Shown here: piece after piece, positions 20,175 through 53,953 of the stretch
Layout: every line of letters begins with the position of its first letter
Position numbering within the stretch: position 1 is the first letter of the stretch
NCBI GenBank assembly: GCA_949358305.1
Contig: OX442314.1
Span: 3,596,001-3,660,000 of the forward strand
Direction of reading: 5' to 3'
Origin: Strigamia acuminata
Taxonomy: Eukaryota
Length of the DNA: 64,000 nt
The notes under the pieces: generated by a model
What the model was told of the DNA's origin: nothing
Database searches by the model: none
What the model saw: only the letters and a program-made list of their open reading frames with translations
Program-made: the position numbers and the translations under genes

Positions 20175-20177
20175 TTT

Positions 20178-23148: not shown

Positions 23149-23273
23149 TTACCTCTTTTGTAGGCTCTGTTGTTTTTAGTGACTCCCATTTCCAACGTGC
23201 CGGTAGGAGTAGACTTTTTACATTTAACGCAAAACATGTTTGTCTTCTTTTTTTTATTACGGGAATATAAAAA

Positions 23274-23951: not shown

Positions 23952-25161
23952 ACAGCAGCGTGGAAATTACGAGAAATTAAAACAGAGCTTGAAAAAAAAG
24001 TTTCTGCAAGATAAGTTAAACAGAGGATCCGAAGATGAAGCGCTCGGTGCATTCTTCAAACCTGTAACTGCTGCATTGCATAGCCTGCCGCAGCAGCAGC
24101 AGCAACTATCTCCACCCCTTGCTCTACCACCTACGACTTTCAAATCCTCACCTTCCACTCCCATTAAAAGAGAGTTGTCATCTTTCACACCCATTACAAG
24201 TAAGTCCCATAATTTAAAGTACGAAATGGATCTAGAATCACCGCTCTTACCTTGGGAAAGTTCATCCTTAAAAAGGCAGTTCAGTCGCCAAAGCTTGTCC
24301 TCGAGTAAAATTGAAACTCCTCGACTTAAGTTTGGCCGGGATGATGGGAATGAAGAGGAAAATGTTTCATTTCAAAGAGAGGGAGAGACGAGCCTCGTAG
24401 AAGATGATGTTGATGATGATGATTGGCAATTTGCTCATGTGCTTCCAAATATAAAATATCAACGCGACATAAGAAAAAGTCTCGAATTAAAAATGACGGA
24501 CAAAGAATCGGAAAACGCAGTACAGCAAGAGTTCTTGAAATATTACGCCGAAAATGCGGCTCATTTAGATACGGTGTTTGGAATTAGATATGACCCGTAT
24601 GATTCAAAATTTAAAATAGGAGTCGAAGAAGTTAAATTCTTTCCAACTCATATACTTGTGAAAAACGTAAAGTATCCACGAACTCCAACATTAATGCATC
24701 TCCTCATGCAAAAACTTCCACCGATTGAAGGAACTATGACAGACCAAAATTTTGTGGATTACGGCAGGATTCTCATTTCTAGTCAAGGGTTATTTAAAAA
24801 GAACAATTCGGCAACTAATATGCCAAAGTCTAGTAAAGGAGAAAAGTATATGACAGTGGTTAAACGAATTTGGGAACTGTATAAAAATCGTCCAAAGACA
24901 ACATCCCAAGCTGGCAAGAACACACCCCAAGCTGGCAAAGGTGTCACGAAAACGTTTCGGCCGCACAACTCCGTAGACTACAAGTATTACAATAACCCGG
25001 ACGAATTAATAGACAGGCTGCGATTGTTGCATGCATCACGGGATGCTGGAAACCAGTCTCACGACAACGAAATTGTGGAAATACTTATGGAACTGAAAGA
25101 GGAAAGAATCCTCGATAAAACCAAGTTTGAAAACATGCGAAAGAAAATTCTCGCGAATTAA
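23938..25161 (+). CDS. Conserved Maverick protein of unknown function (407 aa)
   Basis: DTVFGIR segment and C-terminal YYNNPDELIDRLRLLHASRDAGNQSHDNEI motif, which I recognise from invertebrate Mavericks; overlaps the ATPase stop. Confidence 0.75.
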   Translation: MNMNKQQRGNYEKLKQSLKKKFLQDKLNRGSEDEALGAFFKPVTAALHSLPQQQQQLSPPLALPPTTFKSSPSTPIKRELSSFTPITSKSHNLKYEMDLESPLLPWESSSLKRQFSRQSLSSSKIETPRLKFGRDDGNEEENVSFQREGETSLVEDDVDDDDWQFAHVLPNIKYQRDIRKSLELKMTDKESENAVQQEFLKYYAENAAHLDTVFGIRYDPYDSKFKIGVEEVKFFPTHILVKNVKYPRTPTLMHLLMQKLPPIEGTMTDQNFVDYGRILISSQGLFKKNNSATNMPKSSKGEKYMTVVKRIWELYKNRPKTTSQAGKNTPQAGKGVTKTFRPHNSVDYKYYNNPDELIDRLRLLHASRDAGNQSHDNEIVEILMELKEERILDKTKFENMRKKILAN

Positions 25162-25179
25162 AAAAAAGTAATAATAATC

Positions 25180-25950
25180 GTGATTACCATGTCTATCGTA
25201 CTAAGCAGTACGAAATCGGATTTCCTCACTACTTTTAGCTCACCTTTAATTTTGGGTGACGACGAATACGAATTGGGATTAGTGAGCCTCGAGACATTTT
25301 ACACAATGCCAAATATAACCGAGGACAACAACGTGTTCAAATACTACACTGTTGAAGTAGATGTGAACGTCCCCGCTCGTATTATAGGTACGCTCAACTA
25401 CGACATCATCGTTCCCGTGGGTTGTTACGAACTTGCCGACATTATCTCGTACATACATACCGAAATGAAATCCAGAGGACACTGGAATATGAAAGACGAC
25501 GCACCTTTCATCGACATCGTGGCCAATTATAATACTCTGTCCACGACATTAGTGATTAGCGATGCCAGTTACGGGGCCAATTTTTCGGAAAATAGAAGTA
25601 TGGCTAAATTATTCGGTCTCAAAACAAAGAAATACGGTGTAGGTAGAAGCGAATCCATTAATCCGGTGAACATTTTTCACATTAACACTATCCTGGTCCA
25701 TTGTGATCTTATTACCGACTCTTATAAAAACGGGAAGACGGCTCCGATCATATACGCATTTTTTCCTAATGTCCCGCCAGGCTTCAAAATAGTAGAAATG
25801 CCGTATAACATAGTTTACTTGCCGGTGAAAAATCAATCTAAAATACACGAAGTCAGGATCTGGTTGACCGATCAAGACGATAAACCACTGAATCTGAGAG
25901 GAGAAATTTTTACTACACGTTTACACTTACGAAAATTAATTAAAGCGTAA
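25180..25950 (+). CDS. Minor capsid protein (penton, single jelly-roll)
   Basis: Beta-rich; VHCDLI..SY.NG, NVPPGFKIVE.P...YLPV and LTDQD..PLNLRGE...RLHLR are typical of Polinton pentons. Confidence 0.85.
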   Translation: MITMSIVLSSTKSDFLTTFSSPLILGDDEYELGLVSLETFYTMPNITEDNNVFKYYTVEVDVNVPARIIGTLNYDIIVPVGCYELADIISYIHTEMKSRGHWNMKDDAPFIDIVANYNTLSTTLVISDASYGANFSENRSMAKLFGLKTKKYGVGRSESINPVNIFHINTILVHCDLITDSYKNGKTAPIIYAFFPNVPPGFKIVEMPYNIVYLPVKNQSKIHEVRIWLTDQDDKPLNLRGEIFTTRLHLRKLIKA

Positions 25951-26337
25951 TTAAAAAAACATGCCGTTAATTTTTAATAAGAACGTAACGGCAAGTAATA
26001 CCCCCAGCACCAGCTCCAACACTGCCACTGTCAAGACACCCTCGTCGATTAGAGGTGGAAATATAAAAATTATAAAGTCTTCGATACGGCCAGATAATCG
26101 AGAATATATAAATTCTTTTTAAAAAAAATATATATTAAGTAATTAATTAAATACCGTAATTCTTTTTAAAAAAAATATATATTAAGTAATTAATTAAGTA
26201 ATTCTCTTTTAAAAAATATATATATATTAAGTAATTAATTAAGTAATTCTTTTTAAAAAAATATATATATTAAGTAATTAATTAAGTAATTCTTTTTAAA
26301 AAATATATATATATTAAGTAATTAAAAAATAGCGACG

Positions 26338-27657
26338 ATGCAAGTCTCCGAGAATTATTTGGATGTCGAACAACCATTCGTCGTCGATGAATCTGTTAAT
26401 GCCTACAACTACCACGAATATTATCCTATTATAGGAACTAATTTAAATAATGTGAATTCCGAAATTCGATTAATCATTCAAAACGAAGATGTATGGACTC
26501 ACCCTCATAAAAGTTACGTCTGCATAACAGGAAGATTAGTGAAAGCGGATGGTACAGACCTTATCGCTCAAGCTGATGAACAAGACCATATAATAACGTT
26601 AGGAAATAACTTTATGCCATTTTTGTTCAGCAACATGAAATATCACATAGGTGATAAATTAATAGACGAAATAAATTATCCGGGTTATGCTACCACTATT
26701 AAGGGCTTACTAACGTACAAACAGCTCCAAAATTCGAGCGGAAATATGGGATGGATAGTAGATCATCACAAGGGCGAAGCATCGGATACTCTTAATCCCG
26801 CTTTTCTAGAACGTAGAATATTTTACAACATAATGCCAACGCCCAAAGGATCGTTCTCTTTGTTAGTACCGTTAACACATTTAATGGGATTTTTCGAAGA
26901 CTATACGAAAATCATATATGGTGCCAAACAAGTTTTGACCTTAATGCGAACTCACGACAACGATGCCATTTTTAAAGCGATACAGTCCGGTCCCGCCCCA
27001 AAAGTAAACACCCCCGTTGGAAAAATTATCATCGAACAGTTATATTGGTTGATGCCGCACGTCTTACCGTCCGATATCCAAAAGAATAGATTACTCACTG
27101 CCATAGATAGAGGGGTGAACGTTCCATTAGCTTTTCGACATTGGTCGTTCGAAATGACAGACGTGCCACAAAGTAAGGAACACGCGTGGAGAGTGGTAAC
27201 AACCAGCACGTCAGAAAAACCACGTTACATCATCGTGGCTTTACAAACGAATAAAAGAGACGACCAATTAAAAAATCCAGCCACATTTGATAACTGCAAT
27301 GTAACGGAAGTTCATGCCTACTTAAATTCGGAACGATATCCTTATCTGGACAGTAACAATGATTTTAAGAAAGCCAATTTCTGTAAATTCTTAGAAAGTT
27401 GCATTCAATTTAGAAAAGACTATTACGGTGCCGACGATTTACCGTTTAATACTTACGAGTACGGAAATATATACCCGCTCATCGTAATAGATTGCACGAA
27501 ACAAAGCGAAAGAATGAAAACCGGAATAATGGACGTGCAAATAAAAATGAAATTTGCGGAAACCGTTCCTGCCGACACTAAAGCCTACGCTTTGATAATA
27601 AGCGATAGACTAATGACTATGAAATTAGACAAGGGTAAAATCGAAGTATTATATTAG
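26338..27657 (+). CDS. Major capsid protein (double jelly-roll)
   Basis: 439 aa; EKPRYIIVALQT, FDNCNV...YLNSERYPY and PLIVIDC.KQ motifs of Polinton MCPs. Confidence 0.9.
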   Translation: MQVSENYLDVEQPFVVDESVNAYNYHEYYPIIGTNLNNVNSEIRLIIQNEDVWTHPHKSYVCITGRLVKADGTDLIAQADEQDHIITLGNNFMPFLFSNMKYHIGDKLIDEINYPGYATTIKGLLTYKQLQNSSGNMGWIVDHHKGEASDTLNPAFLERRIFYNIMPTPKGSFSLLVPLTHLMGFFEDYTKIIYGAKQVLTLMRTHDNDAIFKAIQSGPAPKVNTPVGKIIIEQLYWLMPHVLPSDIQKNRLLTAIDRGVNVPLAFRHWSFEMTDVPQSKEHAWRVVTTSTSEKPRYIIVALQTNKRDDQLKNPATFDNCNVTEVHAYLNSERYPYLDSNNDFKKANFCKFLESCIQFRKDYYGADDLPFNTYEYGNIYPLIVIDCTKQSERMKTGIMDVQIKMKFAETVPADTKAYALIISDRLMTMKLDKGKIEVLY

Positions 27658-27831
27658 ATTTTAAAATAATATATACGTATATAAAATATATATAAATATA
27701 TATAATATATAATATATATATAATATATATATATATATAATATATATATAATATATATAATATATAATATATAATATATATAAATAAATATATATAAAAT
27801 AATATATACGTATATAAAAAAAGAAATAAAA

Positions 27832-28299
27832 ATGTATAAGATACATAAAGTGAATCTATCTCCGAATCAACAACGAAAAATATCCAAGTCTGTCAAAAAA
27901 AAGATACCCTTGCATTTAAGATTGAAATACGAACAATTAAACGGCAATCATGGCTTGTCTCTTACGGATAGACAAATAAACAAGATCAAAAAAGCCGGTT
28001 CTAAAAAGAAAGGCATGACTTTGAGTATACCTTCGAATCAAATTAAACAATCTGGCGGATTTTTCCCTTTATTACTTCCACTATTGGGGGCTTTAGGCGG
28101 TCTCGCTGGCGGTGCGGCAGGAATTGCCAAAGCTGTCGATGAGGCAAAAACCAACAAGAGAATGCTCGATGAGACAAAACGTCATAATGCAGTTTCAGAA
28201 GGTAAAGGAATGCAATTCGCAAAAAAAAAATCGCGGAAACGCAAGTCTGGAAAAGGTTTTTACTTGAAACCTTACGGCTCACTGGTGACAAAAAAATAA
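27832..28299 (+). CDS. Basic core / membrane-active virion protein (155 aa)
   Basis: Lys-rich; SGG|FFPLLLPLLGALGGLAGGAAGIAKAV amphipathic segment, ETKRHN and GKGFYLKPY. Confidence 0.75.
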   Translation: MYKIHKVNLSPNQQRKISKSVKKKIPLHLRLKYEQLNGNHGLSLTDRQINKIKKAGSKKKGMTLSIPSNQIKQSGGFFPLLLPLLGALGGLAGGAAGIAKAVDEAKTNKRMLDETKRHNAVSEGKGMQFAKKKSRKRKSGKGFYLKPYGSLVTKK

Positions 28300-28655
28300 A
28301 ACCGCTAGATTCGTTGCAGTTGGAGGAACTGGCCAGACGAATGAAAATTTCATTTTTTAGAGGAGTGTTTTCGAGAGATACTTTACCCGTCAAACCACGA
28401 TCGAAAGAATGTGGAATTGTTAATTTGAACACGCACCACGAAAGCGGAAGTCATTGGGTGGCATACAGTAAAATTGGAAATAAGAAGCTGTACTTCGATA
28501 GTTTCGGAGACTTGCCACCCCCGTTGGAATTATACGATTATCTGGGAGACAACATAAAATACAATTACAATCAGTATCAAAATTTTGACGAAATTACTTG
28601 CGGCCATTTGTGCTTATATGTTTTAAAAAAATGGAGGAAAGAAGAAAAAAAATAA
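28290..28655 (+). CDS. Adenain-like cysteine protease, copy 2 (no ATG at its natural start; probably a frameshift fusion to the upstream ORF)
   Basis: FRGVFSRDTLP, IVNLN...GSHWV, YFDSFG, QYQ......CGHLC (His-Asp-Gln-Cys all present). Confidence 0.9.
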   Translation, partial: KKIKPLDSLQLEELARRMKISFFRGVFSRDTLPVKPRSKECGIVNLNTHHESGSHWVAYSKIGNKKLYFDSFGDLPPPLELYDYLGDNIKYNYNQYQNFDEITCGHLCLYVLKKWRKEEKK

Positions 28656-28689
28656 TTAAAAAATAGTTTTTTTCCCTTCTATTAAAAAA

Positions 28690-30330
28690 ATGGTAAGCGT
28701 AAATAAACTAGGAGACGATTATCGTCTTAACGCAGTGCATAAATTGGGCAAACGTCAACGTCGAGAAGTAGATGAGGTTCTCGCAGATCACGTTGGTTAC
28801 GATGCATTATCCGATCTAGAAAAAAAAATTTTTGACGAGATCACAAAGACTAAAAATGCCCTGAAAGCTGCTTGCGATTCTATAATTAACGATTTGAACG
28901 CATTAAAACGTACCGTACAAGATCAAGCTAGTAAGCTAACGGGGCAAGGCGAAGGAATTGATACGAAGGATATTGATAAACTCAAAAATGATATTGCCTA
29001 TGCTACTATAAAATATGGAACGTTGGAACAAGATTTGATTAAGAAAATTAAAGAATTAGAAGCGAACATTAAGATATTAGTAGATAATGCGACTGCTTCC
29101 GGTGGTGTAGAAGTTGACGAAAAACAAATAAGCGCATTAGAAATCAAAATCAAAGACTTGATAAATGACGTTAAATCCGAGTTGGAATCTGCGATCGAAG
29201 ATTTAAAGACTGGGTTGGAGACGTTGACTAATAGCTTAATCCAGAATAAAACCGATTATGATACAAAAATAAACGAAGCATTGGATGAAGTAGAAACCAA
29301 AATCCAGAACTTAGACGTGGACAAAATCAGAACCAACATCGAGGCATCAAATGACAAGATAAAACAAGCACAGGATGATATAAAAAAGTTAGAAAAAAGT
29401 GTGGAAAATGAGGTTAAAGCCTTGGAAACCAAAATCAAAGCTTTACCCGCAAAATTTGGTGTTAGTAGCGAAAGTACGGAAGACTTAAAAACCAAAATTG
29501 AAGCGGCGAAAGCGGAGCTAGACACAGTCAGTACTGCCATTCAAAAAGATCTGGACGAGACTAAACTTAAATTAAACGAGTACGTAGACGAAAATTCCGT
29601 AAAGTCAGATAAAATGCAAACGAGCGTCAACGAGGTTACCGATAAAATCAAATTAGCCAACGAACAAATAATAACGTTGCAGGAAAACATGTTGTCCATT
29701 TTGACATCCGTTCAAGAAGAAATATCAAAAATTAGCGCAATTCCGAGCGTTGACGAATCAAGTTTTGCTCCCGCTGCTTTGGCCGGCACTGTCGATACGG
29801 TAGAAGCCACGTTAAATTCTAACATCGAAGCGAACAAAATAGAAGTTAATAAGAAATTGACGGAATTAGAAGACAAAATATCAAATCTAAATATTCCCGA
29901 AGTAGAAGAACAGGCCGATTTAGTGCTAGGGTTCCTACATTCGCAACGGACCGATTGGTTTTTGAAGGTGTCCGAAGAATGGAAATTATTTGCACATAAT
30001 GGGAAGTTTTATACTCCTCATTACGGGCATATAACGCGAATCAGTTTATTCATGTATGCTACTACAGCAGAATACACAGTAATACCTAACGAGTTTGAGT
30101 TTATCTTGTCTATTAACGGGCATGGTCGAACGTTCCATATTCCACGTACAGATGTTACAAAAACACCACGTAAAATGCCGGTATGTTTTAGAACGTACAA
30201 TTTAGAGAAAAAAGTAGATTTTGATGATAACGATCACATTAGAATATCTACTGTCACCGATTGGAGTCCGGAAATAAAAGTTTACGCCCTCGTGTATTGC
30301 AGATTCGATCGTAGTAAATGGGACGATTAA
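28690..30330 (+). CDS. Long coiled-coil protein with a C-terminal beta-rich globular domain (546 aa)
   Basis: About 400 aa of heptad-like K/E/L/I helix followed by ~135 aa of aromatic, beta-rich sequence. Confidence 0.8.
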   Translation: MVSVNKLGDDYRLNAVHKLGKRQRREVDEVLADHVGYDALSDLEKKIFDEITKTKNALKAACDSIINDLNALKRTVQDQASKLTGQGEGIDTKDIDKLKNDIAYATIKYGTLEQDLIKKIKELEANIKILVDNATASGGVEVDEKQISALEIKIKDLINDVKSELESAIEDLKTGLETLTNSLIQNKTDYDTKINEALDEVETKIQNLDVDKIRTNIEASNDKIKQAQDDIKKLEKSVENEVKALETKIKALPAKFGVSSESTEDLKTKIEAAKAELDTVSTAIQKDLDETKLKLNEYVDENSVKSDKMQTSVNEVTDKIKLANEQIITLQENMLSILTSVQEEISKISAIPSVDESSFAPAALAGTVDTVEATLNSNIEANKIEVNKKLTELEDKISNLNIPEVEEQADLVLGFLHSQRTDWFLKVSEEWKLFAHNGKFYTPHYGHITRISLFMYATTAEYTVIPNEFEFILSINGHGRTFHIPRTDVTKTPRKMPVCFRTYNLEKKVDFDDNDHIRISTVTDWSPEIKVYALVYCRFDRSKWDD

Positions 30331-30346
30331 ACTAACCATCGTCATA

Positions 30347-32668
30347 TTAATCCTCCGCCAAGCTTACGTATCCATAAGCCAAAGTATGAATACAATCATC
30401 TAATATCACTCGTTTCTTGTCTTTCGCCGACAATGCCAATTTGTCCACCTTGACCGTTGTGAGATCGTGCAGTTTTGATTTGATCGTTTCAAATTTCAAT
30501 CTGTGGGCCTCCCGTTCACCGAACAATATCTTCTTGTACGCCTCCAAGTCCAGCTCTTGCTCCACGACAGCCTTCTTTATGCCTTTACATCGCATGTTCG
30601 TTTTCCCGTTCACGTTATAAGCGTAACATTTGGCTCTTAGCCCTACAAACTCTTCTATCGGCTCGCCGGCAGTCTCGTCTTTGAAGCATCCTATGACACG
30701 CCTGTTTCTGCCATCGGGTGGGTGGTAATTAGACAGATCCATCACTTGTGGTATTTCTTCTCTGAAGAACGAGTAGACTGACGGAGCTTCTATTTCGTAC
30801 ATCAAACTATCCGTATCTGTCATCAGCAATCTCAGCTTGTCTGAGAATTTTTTTTTCATGACGTTGTAATGAAAGTCGTAGAGCAAGCATTTAGACAAGT
30901 CCAGGATAGTTAAACCGCTGTAAATAGGTTTGTCTAACGTCAATTCCAGCTTTCGCCGTTCAACCAACACCAGTTTTTTGTTTAATTTTTTTTTTCCTTT
31001 GAAACCGACGTGGTTGACGTGAGTATTCAAGTCTTTTGCATTGTTTACCAGATAAAATTGTCTATATTTCCTCACGTCCTGCAAGGTTTTTCCAAAGACC
31101 GAATTGTTAGCTAATTTCGCCAATTCCTGCTCAAAATCACTGGTAGCTGACTTCCGTTTCTCAATATTCAATTTGATATACTTGGCCAGCCACGGTTTTT
31201 GCTCAAACGTCAGCACTCTTTTTATTTTCATCAACGTCATGCCCAGGGACAAGTACAATTGCAGAGCTCTGTAATGCAGAATGTAATTACAACGAGCTTG
31301 CAAATGCGGGATTAATCTGGGAGAAGTGTCATCCCCAGAACGTATCATTTCCGGAGCCAAAGGCAAACAATTGTGGGACGAATGCAGTTCTTGCGGATAT
31401 CCCAAATCCACTTCCAAGATGCATCCCATCGTATCGTTCTCTCCCATTTTTAAAATCCGTTCTTGTGACCATTCGGCTACATTATCGTCGAAGGCAAACT
31501 TGCCAACTGGTAGCGGTTTGCTCATTGCCCAGGAATACATGGAATTCGCATCCAAATAGACGATGTAACTCTCTGGTTTCTCGCAATCGTATCCCGATGC
31601 CAGAAGAGGATTATTGGCTTTGGCGTAGCGTTGACTGATAGTGGCAACACCGCCTCTTATTCCTTGTTCGACAAACATGTACATATCTGGATCAGACAGA
31701 AGCTCCAATTTAACTTCGGTGATGAGCAGCGCAGCGTCCCAAGAAAGACTTGGAAACGTGATGTAATGACAGGGGTCTAGCTTGTAATGATTTAAACACA
31801 TTTTTCTGAACTGTTCGAATATATCCGCCAACAACAGAGTGTCGGTCTTCAGATACAAATCGTGATATTCGCCCATGTTTTTAATTCCGAACGTTTTCCA
31901 AACTAACTGGGCATATTGGTATTCGTCGTCGGTTATGTTCTCAAATTCTTCTTTCGGCGGAAGTTTATCTTCTTGAAATTTTGACCAACCGGTCATATAT
32001 CTGTAAGGGTACACTCCTTTCCTCAACAGAAGATCAATTTCCTCGCCTTTAAACTCGCTTCGAAAGACAGCGAACTGCGACTTCTCTAGATTTTTTGCCA
32101 AATTGGATAAACTGCTCGCGAGAAATTGGAAACTATCCATGAATTTTAACGTTACGACCTGTTTTGGATCATCACCGGTCTTGATTTTCAACGTGAACGA
32201 TTTGTATAATTCCGAGTTTTCGGCGATCATCGTCACTTTTTCTGACGCGACGGTCAAATGCGGCAATATTAGATGAAAATCATACTTTTTTCCATTATGG
32301 AAAATTATAGGCACAGATTTCCGCCAATGGTAGTTGAGGTTACAATTAGCGTGTGCGGCCCCACGAAACTTCCCGGTGAAATGGTTATGATCCAAGACTT
32401 TTGTCAAGCCTTTTAATTCTTCCAAGAATTCATCACCGCATAAGTAACACGTTGTTGCATTTCTATAAGCGATCCATTGAAGCGAAGTCATCGTTTTGGA
32501 ATTGAATTGTTTATGTTCCAATTCGGAAAATTGCTGAACCACGGCTTTAATTTCCGCACGCAACGATTGCAAAAAATGATCGACGGCATCCGGACCTCTA
32601 TACAGCTGTAACGGTCTGGAATAAGCTTCGTTCTCAGTGCACACTACTTTAAACGAATAACCGCACGG
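30347..32668 (-). CDS. Protein-primed family B DNA polymerase (pPolB) with an endonuclease-VII-like Zn domain; 5' end in the gap
   Basis: CYLC...DHNHFTGKFRGAAHANCN, FHNGKKYD, RKGVYPY, YLKTD, YLDANSMY, KLANNSVFGK, MTDTDSL, LRAKCY and KG motifs. Confidence 0.95.
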   Translation of the reverse strand, partial: PCGYSFKVVCTENEAYSRPLQLYRGPDAVDHFLQSLRAEIKAVVQQFSELEHKQFNSKTMTSLQWIAYRNATTCYLCGDEFLEELKGLTKVLDHNHFTGKFRGAAHANCNLNYHWRKSVPIIFHNGKKYDFHLILPHLTVASEKVTMIAENSELYKSFTLKIKTGDDPKQVVTLKFMDSFQFLASSLSNLAKNLEKSQFAVFRSEFKGEEIDLLLRKGVYPYRYMTGWSKFQEDKLPPKEEFENITDDEYQYAQLVWKTFGIKNMGEYHDLYLKTDTLLLADIFEQFRKMCLNHYKLDPCHYITFPSLSWDAALLITEVKLELLSDPDMYMFVEQGIRGGVATISQRYAKANNPLLASGYDCEKPESYIVYLDANSMYSWAMSKPLPVGKFAFDDNVAEWSQERILKMGENDTMGCILEVDLGYPQELHSSHNCLPLAPEMIRSGDDTSPRLIPHLQARCNYILHYRALQLYLSLGMTLMKIKRVLTFEQKPWLAKYIKLNIEKRKSATSDFEQELAKLANNSVFGKTLQDVRKYRQFYLVNNAKDLNTHVNHVGFKGKKKLNKKLVLVERRKLELTLDKPIYSGLTILDLSKCLLYDFHYNVMKKKFSDKLRLLMTDTDSLMYEIEAPSVYSFFREEIPQVMDLSNYHPPDGRNRRVIGCFKDETAGEPIEEFVGLRAKCYAYNVNGKTNMRCKGIKKAVVEQELDLEAYKKILFGEREAHRLKFETIKSKLHDLTTVKVDKLALSAKDKKRVILDDCIHTLAYGYVSLAED

Positions 32669-32868
32669 NNNNNNNNNNNNNNNNNNNNNNNNNNNNNNNN
32701 NNNNNNNNNNNNNNNNNNNNNNNNNNNNNNNNNNNNNNNNNNNNNNNNNNNNNNNNNNNNNNNNNNNNNNNNNNNNNNNNNNNNNNNNNNNNNNNNNNNN
32801 NNNNNNNNNNNNNNNNNNNNNNNNNNNNNNNNNNNNNNNNNNNNNNNNNNNNNNNNNNNNNNNNNNNN
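32669..32868. other. Assembly gap (200 N)
   Basis: Run of exactly 200 N; base composition differs on the two sides. Confidence 0.99.
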
Positions 32869-34090
32869 AAGACGACGAAGACGAAGACGAAGGCGAAGGC
32901 GAAGGCGATGGAAACGGTGGAAACGACGGCGGTCGCGTCGGACATGGTCGCGGCACCGCTCCTGGACGCGGGATGAAGCGCGATTGCGGTCTAATCGCTA
33001 GCATTGCGAAGAGCAAACGCGAACGTGAGGCTAAACAAATACGTGGACGCGAGCCGACTCCCACTACAAAGTCGTCGCCATCGTCGTCGTCGTCGTCGCC
33101 GGACAATGACAAACCGGATCCGTTCAAGGTAAAGGAAAGGGATCCTTTCCGCTGCTCTCATTAATTTGGTGGTTTGTGTTTGACTGAAATTTCAGACAGC
33201 CTTGTATCGCGAGAAACGAGACATCACGGGAAGCAAATGCGACAGTGTTTACTGCGCGGAGTCGACTAGTCCGCGACTGAGTTGCAAATCGTGTTCCTCT
33301 TCGGTACACGAAGAATGTGTGGGGCGGACATGGACCAACCGGAAAAGCTACACCAAGTTCTTTTGTAGCGGTTGTCGTAAAATTCCTCCCGCTCCTATCA
33401 CGAAACTGCGGTGAGTGTTTTCTTTCATTTTATTCTGTAATTAACTATAATTTTTTTGGCCACACCGTAGTCTAATTCGCTTGTTCATTTTTTGCTAAAC
33501 TAGTTTTAATTATTTCACACAGGTACTCCACTTACTCGATTGAGCAAAATCTCACCAAACACTTCAACATCTGCTTCCAACACGTCGCAGACGTGCTCAA
33601 TGGAAAGCTTAAAAGTTGGCGAATGAACCTCTTTGACAAAGGTGCCCCGAAGCGATCGTCCATGTCGACCGACCGACACGATTTACTGATCCAAGACGAA
33701 GAACTGGTACAGACTATAGATTTTTTATTATTTTTATATGTTTTTGTTTGTTTGTTTGTTTGTTTGTTTGTTTGTTTGTTTGTTTGTTTGTTTGTTCTTT
33801 TCTTTCGTTCGATTGAATTTTGCTCATTTACATTTCAGTGCAAACGTTTTGCTCATTCTATTATAAAGAAAATAAGCACGGACCTGCCCATAAAAACACA
33901 GTATGCGCAGACGTGGGGACCAGACGGAATTGAAACGTTCATGACAGCGGTCGCAATTCCCGAATTTCTGACCCGATTGATCTCTAAGATGGAGGACATC
34001 GATCGGGACCACGCAGACTTTTTCCTGGCTAATGTGGATCGCCCGCGGTATTTTGTTGACGATTTGAAAGACACGCGTGCCAGTCCGTGA
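32869..34090 (+). CDS. Spliced PHD-finger protein, 5' end in the gap (exons ~32869-33128, 33196-33410, 33523-33706, 33839-34090)
   Basis: C4HC3-like CDSVYC...CKSC....HEEC...CSGC; in-frame GT-AG junctions; AATAAA at ~34148. Confidence 0.7.
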
Positions 34091-34859
34091 AACGGCACAG
34101 TTTGTCAGATTTTCTTTTCTATTTTTTATTTTTTATTTGCGGTTTCGAATAAACAAACACGCACCCCGTTTCGCATTGTTTTTCTTTCGTTTATTTATTT
34201 ATCCATGCGTTTAACAAAATTTTCAGCACATAAATTGTTGTTGTGTAAAATTGCACACGCACGCGCGGTTGATTATATACACGCGCGTCCGATTTCCATA
34301 CTCGCCTCTCGACCGCGCGAGCCTTGTGAAAGCCCCGTGGTTTCCCATCATCCCTCGGTTCATCCTACACGCGTTCGCACGACGACGGCGTGGCAGCGAG
34401 TAGTTGGTCAACTGCCAAGTACTTTTCCAGCGAGAAAAAGAGGAAGAAAATTGAATCAACCGGTCTATCAACCGGCCTATCCATCGAATTAAGCAGGTAT
34501 GTCGACGAGCGAGCGCCATGTTCGCGGACGGACACAGACGGGAACCACAAGCGGTGTAATTGTCACCATCTTGCTCCCACAGATATTTCGAGAGAAATAT
34601 TTGACGAAAATAGCGTGGGTAGATATTTTCACCAGTTGCATTCAAAAGCTAACATAATTTGTATTTTACTCTAAATTTAAATGAAGATTGGCATCATTTA
34701 CCATTTAAACCCGTGATGAAATTTAAAACGCATCGGTATTTCAAGGGGGAAGGGAGGATAACACGTGTGCCATTGCTTCCCCTTTAATCACGTTCCCAGC
34801 ACGTGACAACGATCACGTTCATCCGCGCTGCACACGCGCACCAACCCGCGCGCCATTTA

Positions 34860-37558
34860 ATGACCGCGCGTTATTTGCAAACCCGAACCCCCTATTATCA
34901 GATACCCGTGTCCAACCCTTCTCGGAGGTTTGTTAAAAGATCTACTCGACCGACTCTGGTAAATCGCGAAGAAAGGTGCACCAAATGTTGTCGCAATAAT
35001 GCATATACATATCGTGGGAATATCCTGCATCCTATTTTCCCTGAAATACCAATGCAAATAGCCACCCGCGCTATTTCCACTGCAAAATTTTCTCGTTCGT
35101 CCGTACTTATTTTACTTTACTTTACTTTACTTTACTTTACTTTACTTTACTTTACTTTACTTTACTTTACTTTACTTTACTTTTTTTTTGTTTTATTTTT
35201 TGTTTTTTTGTTTTGTTTTGTTTTGCCTAGGTCCATGACGGACGGTTTTCCAAAAACGCCCAACGACACGCGCGTATGGGCCGCCACGACGACGCGGTAC
35301 CGACAGGACGTCGGATTCAACGGCGAAACACCCGGCTATCGCGGCCGATGCGTGGCTACCAGCTCGGAATTCGACTATTTCGAGGAACTCTTCGGCGAGG
35401 CGGCCCGCTTCACCGTGACGGCGACGAACCGGGCCATTCGGAGAGAGGCGAAGCAGGAGAAAGAAGTGGGAAGAACGCGAGTACAGGTGTTGGGAAAAGT
35501 TGACGCACACGTTGCACACGTCGTTCACGGGGGTTCTCAGACGCGTTTTTGGTCGATTGTTCGTATAATATACATGTTTTTCGTTTTAGACGCGTTCGAT
35601 GCAACGACCACGAGGTCCGAGAACTAGACAAAGGACGTTGGTCGCCGTGGCTTGCGGTAGTGGCGCTGGAGCACACGGACCACAACGCAGTGTTTTGAGA
35701 GTGTGTATCACCGCGGCCGACAGAAGGGCAGCCGAGCTGGCCGCCGGGCGACAGCCCCGACTTCCGTCTCGACCGCAACACCCGCCACAACCGAGAGGGA
35801 CAGCGACAAGGGCGCGCGCGCGGGTCCGCCCTCTAACGCTCGATGAGTTTTATGTATATCTAGGGATCCACGTCTTGGCCGGCTACAACAAACAACCCGA
35901 ATTGCGACACTACTGGTCGAGCAGCAACGTCGGTGATCTCGGTGCACCGGCCGTTGGGCGAGCCATGACACACAAGAGGTTTCAGGAGATTTCGCGGTAC
36001 CTTCATTACGGCACGCAACCGTCCTACCAACGGTTGCACGTTACCGGCTCTGCACGCGGCCCCGATGGCGGCAGCACAACGGCGGAAAGGGTGTCATTTT
36101 TGAAAGAACGCGAACAGGACGACCGCGCGATGAAAGTTCGCTTGTTCGCCGACCTGGTCAACAAACGCTTCCGCGCATGTCGGCAACCAAGGACGACGCT
36201 CTGCATTGACGAGTCGATGATCGCCTTTCGAGGTCGATCAAAGATAAAAGTGCGTACATTTATTTATTCATCCAGTTGTCTACATTTGTTCATTCGTTCG
36301 GCAAATTTCTTCCAGGTCTTCCAACCGGCCAAACCCATCAAATGGGGATTTGAACTTTTCACGTTGTGCGAAGCGGGCACCGGCTACGTGCTGAACGACG
36401 AGGTGCACTTGGGCAAGCGCACCAAGATGTATTTTGACCCGGACGAAGAGCCGGAACCAGAGTGAGTCAATTCATTGTCTTTTCTATTTCACCTCGGATT
36501 GCTTTACTCCAAACTTGCTAGGTATCCGGGTAGTGTCCTCGGACGCATCGTCGTATACGTGGCCAGACACTATCTCGGCATGGGGTACACTATCGCCTGC
36601 GATAATCGATTTTCGTCCGCCGTGTTATTCGAACACCTCTTCACCCGCCACAACACCATGGCCGTGGGGACGCTGCGGGCCAATTCGGCCCAGATGCCAT
36701 CAGATTTTTCGACACTCAGACGATATCAAGGCAACCGGAGAGGTAACGCATTTGCTCGGACGTGAACGCGCGTTTGATTCATTCAATTATTAATTTTTAT
36801 TCTATCTATCTATCTATCTCTCTCATTTTTTTTTTTTTTGTAGGCGATTTCATACAACGACAAAACGGTCGGTTGGTGCTCACTGCGTGGCGAGACACAA
36901 CCACCGTGAGTTTGCTCAGTACGAACGTCGACCCACTGTCAGCGGCCGGCCGTGTCTTGCGTCGTATCGGTGGCAGGAACGTGGATATTGCATGTCCGGC
37001 GCCCGCACTGTCCTACATCGAAAATTTTCATTGGGTAGACGTCTTGAACCGACTCGTCTCCTCATTCCACATCGGACGCCGGTCCAGTTATTGGCACCGA
37101 TACTTCTTCTTTCAAAAGCTGAATCAAGGTGGGATCAAGGCCCCAATCTCTGATTATTATCATTATTGTTATCGTTACAATCTTAATCTCGACTCGTCGT
37201 TTTCCATTTATTCCCCGCAGTGTGTGTCAACGCCCGAATCAACATGCGCGAAGTCACAGCCCCCGCGCGCGGCGATCGATCGCAATTACAATTCCGAAGG
37301 GCACTTGTCGCTCAACTCTTGGCTCGGGAGAGGACGAGGACGACGACCACGGCCTCGCGCGCGGCCCTACCTACTGGACCCGTCGTCCATCGAATGGAGC
37401 GCGCGGGGAAAAGTTGTCGATGCGTGGTGTGTCGCGAGGTCCACAAAGAACGCCACGAGAGCAGTTTCTGGTGCGCTCCCTGCCGGACCCACCTATGTCG
37501 CCCACGCTACCGCAATTGTTTCCAACTCCACGAAGCCGGCGCCGGTAGATTGCCGTGA
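34860..37558 (+). CDS. Intron-containing piggyBac (PGBD4-like) transposase; exons 34860-34927 (tentative), 35231-35486, 35590-36249, 36316-36461, 36522-36742, 36844-37128, 37221-37558
   Basis: YW...M...RF..I.RYLH, CIDESM (D1), KPIKWG, CDNRFSS (D2), GTLRAN, WRD...LLST, WVDVLN (D3) and C-terminal Cys-rich CVVC...CAPC.THLC.....CF..H; intron phases are compatible; AATAAA at ~37588. Confidence 0.9.
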
Positions 37559-37693
37559 TTTTCTATGCTCTTTTGTTTGTAAAACTCAATAAATAAATAA
37601 ACTTTTATGATTTCCACCAGAACATGTAACAATTTTTTTATCTATTTATCGTGTGATAGATGCAGCGGTGGCGATGATGAGATGACAATAATA

Positions 37694-37770
<77 letters not shown>

Positions 37771-37837
37771 TAAAATAAGAATGGGCATCAATTGACTCGT
37801 TGGTCTCGCGTCGGTTTTTGTATCGTCCGAGTCGCCC

Positions 37838-39185
37838 TCAAATTGTTTCGGGTTTTTCTGGTTGCTCGGTTTGAATGGCTTTGTCGAAAAGATCCGGGGG
37901 ACGACTCAACTTTGGACACGACCCCTAAAAACAGAGAGAATGAAGGGGGAGGGGGAAAAAAAGAAAGAGAAAGAAAGAAAGAGATAGATACACTCACGAA
38001 TCTGGCGATCAACCGCGAACTCCGTTCTTGGTTATGTCGAATTTGCCACTCCTTCCGCAACCGCTCTTTGAGACTTTCCACCAGCACTTCGAGCGCCTCT
38101 ATCTTCGCCGCCCGAACCCCTAGCTCCGTTGAATTATTTTTCAACTGCTCCGCATAACCTCCTACATACCGGGCCCACGATACTCCTTGTCCGGGTGGGT
38201 GCATCGCCCACTCCCGCTGCTGCCTCAGGTCTTCTTCGCGACACTTCTTCTGCCTCTTTAGGTCCTTTTCGCGCCACTCCTCCAACTGAATTTTTTTTTC
38301 TCGCTCCAGTTGCGCGAGACGAAATCGTAATTGATGCTCCTCGTATTCCTTATGGTATTTCAATTGTTGTCGGTATTCTTTTTGGTGCCACGCATCCAGA
38401 TCTTTCATCCTCTCTGTGATCATCAATTTTTCTTTTTCCTCCAGTTGCCCTCGAAGCGATCCTATCTCTCGCTTCAACTCCCCCAACTCGTCATCCACGA
38501 CTCGACGCAACCGTCGCTGCTCCTCTCGTGTTTGTTGAATTTGCGCCAATAGAAACCGCGCGCTCATTGATTCTCCATTTCCTCGCTCTTCCTCTCCAAT
38601 CGCGCGTTTCCGTTTCTCTCCAATCGCGCGTTCCCGATCCTCTCCAATCGCGCGTTCCGAATCCTCTCCAATCGCGCGTTCCAGATCTTCTGCAATCGCG
38701 CGTTTCCGATTCTCCTCAATCGCGAGTTCCCGTTCCATCTCGACATCTTCTTCCATCGCGGGTCGCTCATCTCCTCCTCCTCCTCCCTCGCATGGTACTT
38801 CCACCTCAACCACCCCAATCTAGAGACACAGACCAGTAGATGGGTAAGTAAGTAAGTAAATGGACGAATTAATGAATCGAGGTGAACCAAGGCACGACAT
38901 TACAGATTCTCACTTCGATTTCGGGTTCCTCTTTAGCACTGCACAACGGTGCGTCGTTGACGTTGGCGGCGGCGGCGGCGGCGACAATAGTGAGGGTGGC
39001 GTCATCGTCCCCTTCCTCGTCATCGACCTGGAAATAATTAATCAATCAAATCAGAAAAATATGCACATACGCGCCGTACCACTCCGTTTAATAGCCCGGG
39101 TTCATAAGCATGTAAACGCGCTTACCACGATAACGGGAATAGGTGGCCATCTTGGTCGCCTCTCTTCTTCACGCTTCGGTTCCAT
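37838..39185 (-). CDS. 4-exon orphan acidic/coiled-coil protein (39185-39126, 39027-38914, 38819-37998, 37924-37838)
   Basis: Phase-0 GT-AG junctions; internal 8-aa repeats (ERAIGEDR); long E/R/K/Q helix. Confidence 0.6.
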
Positions 39186-39419
39186 CTGAAAACGGACAAT
39201 TTCGACACCGCTGAGAGAATAAAACGACGATGGTGGTGGCAACATCAATGTTGGTTTGTTGTGCCACGAGTTTCCGGTTGTTGGGAAAGTAGAATAGTTG
39301 GACCACTCGCTGTGTGACGCCGTCGAGCGAGGGGGCAGCCACACGTGCGCGGCGAACTGAAATGTCGTGACACTACGGCGCTATGACGCGATACCTAGTG
39401 ACACTAATTGCAAACAAAA

Positions 39420-39473
<54 letters not shown>

Positions 39474-39514
39474 ACAACAAACAACAACACCGATAACGGC
39501 GACCTTTTATCGTC

Positions 39515-39594
39515 GGCCCAGGTGGTCGAGTGGGTAGTCACCCGCCTTACGGAGTCGTGGGTCGTGGGTTCGAGTCTCGACTCTCCCGAATTTT
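39515..39594 (+). ncRNA. tRNA-like RNA polymerase III unit (SINE head or small RNA)
   Basis: A box TGGTCGAGTGG (39523-39533), B box GGTTCGAGTC (39567-39576) at tRNA-like spacing, then TTTT at ~39591. The acceptor stem does not pair, so it is not a true tRNA. Confidence 0.6.
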
Positions 39595-40163
39595 CGTTTC
39601 AGTCGATCTTCTTCATATCTACGGGATAAATATTCAAAAAAGACGATGTGTACGTGCCATTACACATACTCCCTTCCCCAGGGCCTGTGGGAGGGGGGGG
39701 GAGGGGTCGAAAGATTTGATCCCTTTTATTTATTTACTTATTTTTTTTTTTTTGGTTTTATTTAATTTATTTACGTTTTAAACTACTTATTCAGTCGTCG
39801 TAACTAAACGACGAACGGATCTCTCATCTGTTTTGTTTCTCTATGATATTTTATTTATTTATTTATTTATTTATTTATTTTTTTTTTTTTAAATTTTTGA
39901 AGGGTTCCACCAACGCCACATCCATCTACTATGTCGTACAAGATCGGAAAACCTCCCGGAGCGGTGACGGAAGCGGATAGTCACGGTCACGCAATTAGGC
40001 GCTCGGTCACGCGCGCGATCATTGCGTTTTATCCATTTTTTCACATCTTTTATTCAAATTTAATAAAATGTCACACTGAATCGATCGAATGCATTAGTTT
40101 AATGGACCGAACGAAAATAAAATTATACAAACTTTTTCCATAATTTGAGAAAAAGGAAAGAGA

Positions 40164-40204
<41 letters not shown>

Positions 40205-40326
40205 CGAAGTGAAACAATTGCAAAACAGACAAATAAATAAATAAATGGACGAATGAACCGAATAAATGAATAAACTGAACAGCAAATAAAGTTTTGTTCC
40301 TTTAGGCGCACCCCCTCCCCCCCCCC

Positions 40327-40888
40327 CTAATACTCCATCGAACCATCACTGTCGTTGATAGTCTTTCCGGCATCCTTTCCCCTCCCGTCGCAATCTTCTT
40401 CTCCATCGCCTTCGCTTTCCTCCTCCTCTTCGATCTTCTCCAGGCGCTCTCGCCACCTCGCTTCCATACCCAACACAACTCTCTCCATTTTTGCCATCAT
40501 CTCCTCGAATCCTTTTGCCACCGTCTTCTCGATCCTCCCCATCCTTTTCATCACCGCCTTCTCAATCTTGTCCGCAACTATTCTCTCCACCTTCCTGGCA
40601 CCTGGTGTCCTTGGTGTCAAGAGCGACCTCTGAAAAACGAGGAAAGAGAATTAACGAATACACAAATAAATAGGTGGGCGAAAATTTTGATAGAATACTG
40701 ACCCTTCTTCTTTTTGCGGGAGTGCCCGCTTTCTTCGAATCCACCGAGCGACGTTTATTAGACGCCCCGGAACAAATGATCGTCGACGGCGGCGGGGAAC
40801 AACTGATCGTCGACGGCGGCGACGTATAGTCGACGCACTGCAAAATGGAGACAGGAGACGACATGGTGGATTCCATTTTTTCTTCCAT
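40327..40888 (-). CDS. 2-exon orphan protein: S/P-rich region, basic patch, helical core, acidic tail
   Basis: Phase-0 intron 40702-40630 joins ...PAKRRR to RSLLTPRTPGARKVERIV.... Confidence 0.55.
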
Positions 40889-43687: not shown

Positions 43688-44948
43688 TCAGAGTCCACTC
43701 GAACCAGACTCGACGTGGACGAGGCTGCCACATTCCACGTGTGCGAGAGAAGACATCGTTGTGATTGGGGGTGCCGAAAAATGATGCGCTCGAACAACGA
43801 ACAACACGATTGCGTCGCTATCAAACACCGACGTGCCCATTTGTCTGTAAAAAAAGAACGAGTTTTAAAGGAGTGAAATAAATTAAAATTAAATTTAAAA
43901 CATGTATTCGTACATTTGAGGAGCAGATTAGGCGAATTCACTTTTTCTTTCCGGCGCTCGACTTTCCCTTTCCTTTCCTCTTTCTCTTGCTCCTTGCCCG
44001 TTTCTCTTTCTCCTTCCTCGCCAGTTTCTTTTCTTCGTCTTCGTCCTCATCACTTTCCGCATCGTCCTCAAATTCAGAGTTTCTGTAATCTTCGTCGTCT
44101 TCTTTTTCCTCTTCACACCTTTCACCTGTTTCACGCTCTTCTTCCCGGCGTCTCTCTTCTCCACACCCCTCTCCTTCGTCGTTCTCGGGCTCGCCGACGA
44201 CGACAAACCTCTCCTTCATCAGCACCTCATCAACGAACGAGAAATCTTTATTCTGCAAATAAAACGGGAAAATCAATATCCGAAAAGTGTCGACGTAGAC
44301 GCGCGCGGTAGATTCACTCACCGACATGTCGTTCCATTGGTTTAACATCCCCAGCATCCGGAGTAAGTGGGTCTTGATGTCGGGATCGCCCCAATACTAA
44401 AAAAAAAAATAAAAAATAAAAAAAATATATACATAAATAAATAAATAAAAATAAAAATAAAAATAAAAATAAAAATATATATACTTGTTCCGCCTGAACC
44501 TGAGCCCGTATCGTAAAGAGCAGGAGAGTAAGCGAATGAATGGAGAACCGCATGCTCCCGTCGCGAAAGATTTTCATTTCGTGGTTATCGTCCCAATAGT
44601 TGGGATCGCTGTTGGGTTCGCTGCCCCCTTCCGCGACGGGAACCACCCTCGATCGCAACACCCGTTCCTCTCCCTGCGCATCGCCTCGTTGAAAAGATGA
44701 TGAACGTGACGCCGAATCACCGTCGTTGTCGTCGTCGTCGTCGTCGTTGTCTCCGACGCGCTCTCCCTCTCCCTCTCCCATCCCCGGTGCCCATGCAATG
44801 CGATATCTGTGTTTGACCAACCAGTGGTCCTCTAGTCGGTCAACCACAGGCCTCGCAATGCAGAATGGGCACCGTTTCAGGGCCTTGTGCATTTTTTTCA
44901 ACTTCTAGGAAACAGAGGAAAAAATAAATAAATAAATAAATAAATTAA

Positions 44949-44983: not shown

Positions 44984-47900
44984 AACGAATCGACTAATTG
45001 ATTAAATACCCACCGGCAACAGGAGATCGGGTCTACGCGAATAGTCCCGCAGATGCTTCCTGACTCTCTTGGAGATTTCATCCTCGCGCTTAACTGCGTC
45101 TAGGTGGTGATGTTGGCGCCAATGGCGGTACGCGTCCTCGCTGAAATATCCGTATTTCGACACCCCTAAGGTACGCGGGAGGGGAAAGGAAAAAAAAAAA
45201 ATAAAAAAAAAATAAAAATTAGACAAAAAATAAACAAACAAACAAATAAGCAAATGTATGTTTCTCATTACCCGGTTGTTTGGCGCACAGAGCACAATAG
45301 AACGACTTCCCGCCCTCTGTCCGGAGTTTTTCTCCCTTCTTTCCTTTCCCTCCACCCTGGCGTCGTTGCCGTGTTGGCACCGCCCCCGTCTCCACCTCCC
45401 CCACCTTCCGGAGCACCCATTTCTGGAACTCTTCGAACCGTCGATCCAACTCCATCGACAAGTTGGACGGAAGGTTGGACGGAAGCCCACTCGGTCCTGC
45501 CCTGCCAGACGGCACCACCGAGCCCTGGGATGCAGATGCCTTTCGTATCTGAAAGAAATGGAAGGAACGATTGAACAAACGATCAAAGACAAATAGACCA
45601 GACAGGTTACCTTTTCCGTCGACCGCGTGACTCGAGTCTCCGACCTTTTCGACGCGGGTTCCCATAACGGTGATGCGGGCCGCTTCGACGCGGATCTTCG
45701 CGGCTTGGCGATGACACGCGCCAGTTGCTGTTCTTGCGGCGGCGGGGGGGCGATGGGCTCAGATGGTGGCACGGTGAAACACGGCGTCGACATAACCGGG
45801 CACGGCGCCGACATGACAGGACGTGGCATTGGTGTGAGGATCGGCAACTGCAGCCGTTCCAACCTCACGACGGGGCACATTAAAGGCATTTTGCCTAATG
45901 TCGCCGTTGGTTGAAGTGGTGGCGACCGCGGCGGTGACAGGTCTGGTGACGACGGGACCGTCACAACGCTTGGCATCGTCCAAGTGCACCCTGATGTGCT
46001 GGGCAACGACTGGAGAAAAAAAAAAATAAATAAATGAATAAACGAACAAACAGACGGGCAAATAAATATACGATATTGCATGTCGAATCCAAGTTTGTGC
46101 GCGGGTCGGATTCATACGATCAATCCGCTCAATGCGCGCGCGGCAAATTAAATTTGCGGGTTAAATTATAGTGCGCGCGCGGGAATTATTAATTTACGTC
46201 AAATCAACGTGATCGCTTTTCAATTTCAAATTGGAACGCGATCACGTTGATTGTCAAAATAAAATGGTCAGTTACTACGTTACCTCGAATACTTCCTTTT
46301 CCACCTTCTCAACGGTCTTCCGTTTCTTTTTCGCACCCCCTTTCCTCACACACTTCCTCTTCTTCGGTTCCGTCGCCGTCTCCTTCTCCTTTTCCTTCTC
46401 CTCCACTGCCTCTTCCACCGCCGTTTCCTTCCACGTCTCCTTCTCCTTCTCCAACTCCACCTCCATCTCCGGCCACACTATTCCCATCTCCTCCACTGTC
46501 TCTTCCACCACCGTCTCCTTCTCCTTCTCCGTCTCCGACACAGTCTCTTCCACCGCCTTCTCCTTCTCCGTCTCCGACACAGTCTCTTCCACCGCCTTCT
46601 CCTTCTCCGTCTCCGACACAGTCTCTTCCACCGCCATCTCTTTCTCCACCTCCTTCTCCGGCACAGTCTCTTCCACCGCCTTCTCCTTCTCCGTCTCCGA
46701 CACAGTCTCTACCACCGCCTTCTCCTTCTCCGTCTCCGACACAGTCTCTTCCACCACCGTCTCCTTCTCCACCTCCTTCCCTGACACAGTCTCTTCCACC
46801 GCCTTCTCCTTCTCCGTCTCCGACACAGTCTCTTCCACCGCCATCTCCTTTTCCGTCTCCGACACAGTCTCTTCCGCCGCCCTCGCCTTCCCCACCTCCT
46901 CCACGATCTCATCCACAACCCCCCCCACAATCTCATCCGCCGTCCCATCCGTTTCTCTAAAAAAAAAAAATAAATAAATAAATTGTGAGACGTTGCGTGC
47001 AAGACCCGAAGAGCGCGTGGAACTCACGTTTGTGGCAGGCTCGATGACCACACGGAATGCCCCGTGCTTTGTGATAGGTCCAAGGCACCGTCGTCGTTGG
47101 GTCCGTCCTGGTAAGAAACGAGTAAATATAATTACAAATGTGTGCATAATTAAAAAATAAATAAATAAATAAATAAATAAATAAAAATGAAAAAAGGGGG
47201 CCAAAAAGACGCCCACAATTAAAATGACTAACTTGTACTAAAAAAAAGAAAAGGAAAAAATTAACCAATAAATGAATTAAATTTAAATAGACCCTGACAT
47301 TAAATGTGTCGGTAAAGAGCACGCATTTGATGTGCGCGCCTAACTCGAGATGACGCGCGTTGGTTGGTCGTTTTCACATTTCGTCTGCGCCGATCGTGTC
47401 GGAAACATGAGAGTCAAGAACACTCTTGTAAACTCGACTTTGATTCTTTAGCCTACCGTTGCAGTTGCGGGTTCATGGTCCGGTGCCCCGGAAGACGCGA
47501 TGCATTGTGCGACTCGAAACAAGACGTTCGACATGACTTCGGACGCGGCCTGACAGGAAACAAGCAAATGTGAATATTCAAACGGATTGAAAAGAAAAAG
47601 AAACAAAACAGAAAAAAAAATGCATATACTGTATACAGTATATCTGTGATTACTCTGCGGGTCTTTGATAGCGCGCGGACTTGTTTTAAGGCGTGGGGAT
47701 GAATGCGGATTTTGTGAATAACGTGTGGGTCCCGTATAGCGCATGGGGCCGATTGTTACGTTTCCGAAACATGATCGTCGTTACGCGCGGGACCAATAGT
47801 CAAGTCTCCGAAGATATTGTTAAAAAATTGACGAAATGTTGTTGAAAATTGACGAATTTTGATGGAAATTGACTAAATTTTGACCAAATTTGACAAAAAA

Positions 47901-50364: not shown

Positions 50365-50404
<40 letters not shown>

Positions 50405-53934: not shown

Positions 53935-53935
53935 T

Positions 53936-53953
53936 TGGTAGCAGAGGATGGTT
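53936..53953 (+). promoter_or_regulatory. Primer-binding site for initiator tRNA-Met
   Basis: TGGTAGCAGAGGATGGTT is complementary to the 3' 18 nt of animal tRNA-iMet. Confidence 0.93.

Follow-up and report, generated by a model that had tools for sequence, protein, structure and literature searches.

A predicted multi-intron piggyBac transposase gene in an orphan-gene region of very high sequencing depth in Strigamia acuminata

RESULTS

Genes and features of the locus

The window, which is the whole 64,000-nucleotide stretch of Strigamia acuminata contig OX442314.1 that we analyzed and to which all coordinates refer, is divided by a scaffold gap. Its main features are as follows.

To ~18 kb: ABCA transporter gene region
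21382-32668: Polinton/Maverick (adintovirus-like) element, cut by the N gap, ends not located
32669-32868, no strand: scaffold gap of 200 Ns; no sequence reads across it to the Polinton and host DNA on the left
32869-64000, no strand: intron-rich, simple-repeat-rich orphan-gene region holding the transposase; left edge at the N gap, right end beyond the window
32869-34090, plus strand: spliced gene with its 5' part lost in the gap and a PHD-finger exon at 33199-33411 (Pfam PHD_2, E 1e-4, below the cut-off)
37791-39380, minus strand: orphan gene predicted to be spliced and to encode a coiled-coil (E/R/K-rich) protein; its exons were chained by eye
53399-60593, plus strand: intact copia retrotransposon with identical 536-nt LTRs and a GTATG target duplication, inserted in the window copy

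Left of the gap, the Polinton genes are open frames for two protease-like proteins, an integrase with a chromodomain, a packaging ATPase, a jelly-roll major capsid protein, a coiled-coil protein, and a protein-primed polymerase whose 5' part enters the gap. We also observed a near-exact duplication of an ABCA segment (1-3858 and 14143-18000; offset 14,142 nt, one mismatch in the first 3,858 nt), which is either a recent tandem duplication or an assembly artefact. An interstitial CCTAA (TTAGG) repeat array lies at 12804-13085, TTAGG being the arthropod telomere motif, and a hairpin with 106-nt arms that are 87% complementary lies at 19014-19227, between the ABCA region and the Polinton.

Right of the gap, we found short GC-rich exons, T-rich introns, and 35 nt/kb of simple repeats, of which the ABCA region has 1.4 nt/kb. 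The trinucleotide composition of the transposase gene correlated at 0.43 to 0.75 with DNA right of the gap and at -0.15 to 0.16 with DNA left of it. The orphan genes of this region comprise the PHD-finger gene, for whose frame the AlphaFold prediction was of low confidence (pLDDT 53), coiled-coil and acidic proteins, and small Cys/His clusters. Pfam searches with 132 frames and PHROG searches with 35 detected no viral or mobility hallmark in these ~24 kb of short exons, a Herpes_BDLF2 match being subthreshold (13.8 bits against a cut-off of 27). Herpesvirus core genes (polymerase, helicase, terminase, and capsid) were likewise not found in the ~24 kb, and most of the element probably lies beyond the window. 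Atlas searches with two neighboring frames gave no usable match. A by-eye reading of 43941-44396 as a tyrosine recombinase was dropped, as it had no Pfam, PHROG, or Atlas support, and composition and the absence of shared sequence speak against the Polinton and the right-hand region being one element.

Several other sequences of the right-hand region are recorded here as observations. Diverged direct repeats (52297-52987 with 61133-61808, and 61890-62046 with 63839-63990) are ~72% identical, look non-coding, and contain palindromic CG-rich stretches; they could be origin-like or promoter repeats. Two predicted spliced genes, at 40300-40870 (minus strand) and 62810-63498 (plus strand), were read by eye as sharing one plan of a Ser/Pro-rich start, a basic patch, a coiled coil, and an acidic tail, and are possibly paralogues. 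A 31-aa match to HSP90 on the minus strand at 61999-62352 (E 5e-5, below the cut-off) is possibly a captured fragment.

Model of the transposase gene

The initial annotation had placed at 34860-37558 a piggyBac transposase gene with five to six introns. We divide the gene as follows, all features being on the plus strand.

34860-34927: exon 1 of the first reading, likelier 5' untranslated or unused; weak donor, no homology
35100-35230: T-rich (TTACT)n/(TTTTG)n tract that ends in the AG acceptor (35230) of an upstream intron
35235-35486: coding exon with the likely start ATG and a conserved N-terminal helical part (EFDYFEELF...TNR); the N termini of P0004, P0005, and P0022 match
35590-36249: exon with a low-complexity insert (~35590-35825, frame uncertain) and the first catalytic Asp (DESM)
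36316-36461: exon (PAKPIKWGF...NDE)
36522-36742: exon with the second catalytic Asp (CDNRF)
36844-37128: exon with WVDVLN, which supplies the third catalytic Asp and has Asn in place of D450
37221-37558: last exon, Cys-rich domain, stop TGA
35487-35589, 36250-36315, 36462-36521, 36743-36843, and 37129-37220: GT-AG introns, checked by script
36250-36315: of these, a 66-nt phase-0 intron at a site common to relatives; haplotypes of X1 and X3 have 4 nt inserted in it
36462-36521: of these, a 60-nt phase-2 intron with an in-frame stop, at a site common to relatives

In a script check, splicing from the ATG at 35235 gave six exons, five introns, and 633 aa with no stops, and splicing from the ATG at 34860 gave seven exons, six GT-AG introns, and 657 aa with no internal stops. 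We consider 35235 probably the better start, because the relatives P0004, P0005, and P0022 start there and because the donor that the ATG at 34860 requires (GTTTGT, 34928) is weak compared with the donors at 34497 and 34959. Residues 1 to 75 matched P0004 at 34 of 74 positions and P0005 at 36 of 75. The earlier start at 34860 is therefore set aside, with its weak donor, its lack of homology, and the relatives' N termini pointing to 35235. The count of five to six introns holds, since five coding GT-AG introns plus one upstream intron agree with it. AATAAA occurs at 37588-37601, 3' of the stop codon.

The introns are well supported from the DNA alone, and their splicing is predicted. At each of the four core junctions the spliced protein aligns collinearly with intronless relatives, which carry no insertion there, and each core junction offers exactly one GT..AG pair of the required length within 30 nt. 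Three of the five introns are not a multiple of three in length, and keeping the third and fourth would add in-frame stops (script check). The 66-nt intron that can be read through is the one with the 4-nt insertion in X1 and X3 haplotypes. Among the 26 relatives listed, four lose homology directly after GRSxxK at Val and three stop at the next intron site; from these breaks, which come from bacterial-style gene calls and not from the relatives' DNA, we infer that two intron sites recur in relatives.

Catalytic residues and the fourth aspartate

Pfam DDE_Tnp_1_7 matched four of the six coding exons collinearly (profile positions 24-141, 146-187, 193-247, and 255-338). Through a profile of relatives, DESM (aa 291), DNRF (aa 380), and WVDVLN (aa 490) align with D268, D346, and D447 of the Trichoplusia ni (T. 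ni) enzyme, whose residue roles are given in the parts of PMC5381638 and PMC2533014 that we drew on. A profile of seven relatives matched both piggyBat (E 4e-36) and T. ni piggyBac (E 2e-18), and the fold of the relative P0006 matched 9c0f and 6x67. The last exon carries the Cys-rich pattern CxC-xxC...CxxC-xxH-xC...C...H. Confirming the intact DDD triad, the Cys-rich C terminus, and the absence of stops that had been reported for this gene, the spliced-frame check and profile alignment identify the predicted protein as a piggyBac-superfamily transposase in which the DDE_Tnp_1_7 core, three Asp equivalents, and the C-terminal cysteine-rich domain are present.

The GGVDxxD motif with its fourth Asp (D450) is absent, and the protein reads HWVDVLN with Asn at the fourth position. 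This alteration had been described before and is confirmed, but the Asn is a trait of the clade, being found in all 18 of the relatives that span the site (among the 26 listed), and only HW for GG is peculiar to this copy. Outside the clade, 30 of 34 tree rows have Asp, one has Asn, and three lack the motif. According to the portions of the cited papers used here, D450N in the T. ni enzyme cut excision strongly in one assay and ~2.5-fold in another, D450A was active in vitro (both PMC2533014), and D450N is part of engineered integration-poor piggyBac variants (PMC6642342). Both the Asn and the replacement of the preceding GG by HW are points against activity.

The initial annotation had also noted an Arg/Ala/Gly-rich insert near the N terminus. 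A low-complexity insert does lie there and is clade-wide, but its exact frame is uncertain: under a small codon model, the Arg/Pro/Gly-rich frame of 35590-35825 had the poorest scores of the three (-4.9 and -4.3 versus -0.2 to -1.8). Weak evidence of this kind hints that splicing or frame at the N terminus may depart from our model.

Relatives of the transposase

An IQ-TREE quick tree of 53 rows grouped the protein within a clade of 19 rows that has a long stem and SH-aLRT support of 100; 7 rows were under half filled, the outgroup rows were hits of 500 to 760 aa, and the tree was built without PGBD, Pokey, or Teratorn sequences. Its sister in this quick tree was P0023, at 63% identity over 123 columns. 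All 16 hits of the clade profile lay on contigs of 1 to 6 kb (JGI, ENA, Logan, and "src"). Eleven tree rows are intronless, although some could be transcript contigs, and L001, an intronless clade member from metagenome contigs, is followed by 3.5 kb of repetitive DNA without a cargo-like ORF. Because of the intronless rows on short contigs and the downstream DNA of L001, the clade reads as mixed and, as a whole, not tied to giant elements.

No relative was found in three scans of a viral contig collection or in one scan of a genome contig collection. Of three metagenome loci, L001 is a true relative; the other two were dropped at 21 to 22% identity. The P0004 protein cluster includes a 45-aa protein, P0009, labelled a Caudoviricetes hypothetical protein at NCBI, which is probably a chance low-complexity member.

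Sequencing depth and extent of the putatively amplified unit

We compared depth at 35231-37680 and 46905-53398 in runs X1, X2, and X3, which bear one organism label and come from two studies, X2 and X3 being without a recorded library type. The values are contig depths and not copy numbers, they have no single-copy host gene as a baseline, and library-stage amplification could inflate the depth of circular DNA. On the transposase gene, single-contig depth was 1,051 to 1,459 in X1, 18,163 to 20,667 in X3, and at least 25,000 in X2. At 47 to 53 kb it was 851 to 1,336, 16,328 to 18,433, and 25,000, respectively, so that orphan genes 12 to 18 kb from the transposase have a depth similar to its own. 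Per-site sums on the gene in X2 start from ~75,000, and its recurring single-contig value of 25,000 is possibly a ceiling. Depth was flat across exons, introns, and 3' flank, with no step at 35231 or 37680. We read the contigs as DNA because they cover exons and introns, together with the 3' flank, without a splice joint. In run X6, which bears that species label too, no contig covered the gene, although such a negative can be false.

From 53398, an X1 contig of depth 1,052 extended over 860 letters as far as the paralogous repeat (in the window, 881 nt), and a loose end in X3 at 53398 corresponded to the right flank of the copia. Together these show an empty copia site, present in the main X1 haplotype and in X3, and therefore the unit continues past the copia to ~61.5 kb. 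The unit thus spans at least 35.2 kb to ~61.5 kb, or 19 kb without the copia.

The copia, which has a 1,680-aa frame, reads as a very young insertion. Its contig depth was 3,463 to 4,696 in X3, 4,240 to 6,902 in X2, and 875 in X1, giving element-to-copia ratios of ~1.3 in X1 and at least 4 in X2 and X3. A haplotype identical to the window copia occurs at contig depths of 3,500 to 6,900 in X2 and X3, and X1 carries a 177-nt insert at 53242.

The copies also differ by sample. At 4 of the 15 listed sites, X1 was fixed for one allele and X2 and X3 mostly carried the other. The 11 coding variants among copies comprised 5 synonymous and 6 non-synonymous changes and no stops; the synonymous fraction (5/11, against 0.34 expected) does not make purifying selection evident, n being too small. 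None of the four listed indels fell in an exon. With no exon indels and no stops, the coding frame is protected among copies.

Search for element ends

Known piggyBac-like elements are 1,721 to 8,451 bp long with TIRs of 12 to 19 bp, as reported in the part of PMC5381638 consulted here. TIRs of 12 to 19 bp with a TTAA duplication around a unit of 1.7 to 8.5 kb are absent at this locus, and depth does not drop near the gene. Pairing 358 with 152 sites flanking the gene yielded only A/T-rich matches and no TTAA-bounded inverted pair, and among 12 by 9 TTAA sites within 32869-40600 the best pairing agreed at 8 of 14 positions. No credible TIR was found among the 166 TTAA sites in the 31 kb right of the gap, and a general inverted-repeat search returned low-complexity pairs only. 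These searches, which included TIRs with a TTAA TSD within 1 to 2 kb of the gene, bear out the earlier observation that local TIRs are lacking.

DISCUSSION

Comparison with known piggyBac systems

We compared the locus with known systems as these are described in excerpts of the cited papers. The medaka Teratorn, a piggyBac-alloherpesvirus fusion reported as specific to teleost fish (PMC5601938, PMC5822658, PMC10175614), carries its transposase mid-element, spans 180 kb between terminal TIRs, and is present in 30 to 40 copies (PMC10175614, PMC5601938). As in Teratorn, a piggyBac transposase lies here within a large unit of many genes, one that may likewise be multi-copy, and has no TIRs next to it. 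In contrast, Teratorn has all four Asp residues and herpesvirus core genes, whereas the fourth residue here is Asn and we found no viral gene or element end; also unlike Teratorn, this locus has five to six introns, intron-rich orphan neighbors, and an invertebrate host. The layout may be called Teratorn-like by analogy.

Other likenesses are partial, on the same excerpts. The PF13843 core, DDD triad, and Cys-rich tail are shared with T. ni piggyBac and piggyBat (PMC5381638; PDB 6x67, 9c0f). Elements of that type have 12-19 bp TIRs and a TTAA duplication at 1.7 to 8.5 kb, whereas here there are no ends within 31 kb, and the multiple introns, Asn at D450, and low-complexity insert also set our protein apart. 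Pokey of Daphnia (PMC3849761) is likewise an arthropod piggyBac with a spliced transposase intron (predicted in our case), but it has one intron of 68 to 84 bp, short ITRs, and an rDNA target, and the window has no Rfam match and no rRNA. PGBD5, PiggyMac, and TPB2 (PMC5381638) resemble our gene in having multiple introns and no TIRs, with DDD+N in PGM and TPB2, but these are fixed host genes as opposed to a polymorphic, probably highly amplified unit, a comparison made by description. Intron-rich mirusviruses (PMC12768974) are, as the unit might be, large DNA replicons with many spliceosomal introns that exist as episomes or integrants; they are described from unicellular eukaryotes, and no mirusvirus gene was found here.

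Explanations of the high-depth locus

The explanation that we favor, and hold to be probable although far from secure, is that the transposase serves as integrase from within a mobile element that is intron-rich, multi-copy, and giant, measuring 19 kb at the least and probably much more. We favor a giant element because in three runs the gene and orphan genes 12 to 18 kb from it have very high depth in common, and because its composition and microsatellite-rich introns match those of its neighbors and not those of the ABCA region. It is the position of the gene that suggests a link between enzyme and element. In such an element, the host spliceosome would remove the introns, and the entire unit would be cut at its far ends by the enzyme and inserted at TTAA in the manner of Teratorn; the predicted TTAA/TIR ends would sit outside the readable sequence, and amplification would mean either many copies in the chromosomes or replication as extrachromosomal DNA. 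We give about even weight to a fusion of virus and transposon and to a giant transposon of non-viral kind. When the gene was initially annotated, it was proposed to be either the motor of a giant element or a domesticated gene; the former proposal is supported by shared depth and composition, with the enzyme as the putative mover of the element.

The lack of TIRs in 31 kb would also be expected if the transposase were a long-resident passenger without ends in an amplified unit (a large DNA virus, an episome, or a tandem macro-repeat) that spreads otherwise, an explanation that we regard as somewhat unlikely. The altered context of the third Asp and the lack of clear purifying selection fit a passenger, and the near-clonal, sample-specific haplotypes suit replication better than cut-and-paste spread. 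However, the triad, the Cys-rich domain, and the reading frame are intact in every listed haplotype, and intron sites common to relatives of ~50% identity imply long maintenance. Given that the join is a fixed 200-N gap at which composition shifts sharply, and that X6 lacks a contig on the gene (a negative that can be false), the region might instead belong to another organism or replicon, such as a symbiont or a parasite, and be linked to the host scaffold at this gap. This is very unlikely: a cellular genome at 19,000x to >25,000x is implausible, a multi-copy copia should exceed its flanks yet is ~four-fold lower in X3, and X1 to X3 all bear the same organism label.

An ordinary small piggyBac with atypical or decayed ends would accord with the intronless relatives on short contigs, with L001, which resembles a small element in repetitive DNA, and with Pokey, which in the excerpted account is an autonomous piggyBac with one intron (PMC3849761); with no depth step at either edge of the gene, equal depth 12 to 18 kb away, and no inverted pair within 2 kb, we consider it less likely again. 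The least likely explanation, to which we give scant weight, is a single-copy host gene domesticated in the way of PGBD5, PiggyMac, or TPB2, even though the multiple introns, the missing TIRs, the DDD+N residues as PMC5381638 in part describes them for PGM and TPB2, and the intron sites kept across relatives are all features that it would share. We disfavor it because depth is high and the dominant haplotypes are sample-specific. Depths of 1,300x to >25,000x, to be read with no host baseline, are common to 19 kb of orphan neighbors, haplotypes vary by sample, and no conserved host gene is near on the same contig. The proposal of domestication was thus not borne out at 19,000x to >25,000x, again with no host baseline.

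Implications

Returning to the giant-element reading, we offer a further tentative proposal, which we think less likely than not: an independent invertebrate counterpart of Teratorn, in which a large, intron-rich DNA virus of an arthropod, or else a giant transposon kept as an episome, would use a spliced DDD+N piggyBac as its integrase, collect host retrotransposons while in chromosomes, and reach very high copy number in certain individuals through clonal replication. Most natural piggyBac elements are <9 kb, and Teratorn, the single giant that is well known, has been described from fish alone; our literature search, which covered papers outside subscription, found no giant piggyBac element from an invertebrate. 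The clade described here consists of natural enzymes with Asn at D450, the change used in engineered excision-biased piggyBac, so that the role of this residue is testable in a native setting. If true, a giant, amplified, intron-rich piggyBac element in an invertebrate would be a second origin of the Teratorn-type integration route and could reveal undescribed animal DNA viruses or cargo-carrying transposons.
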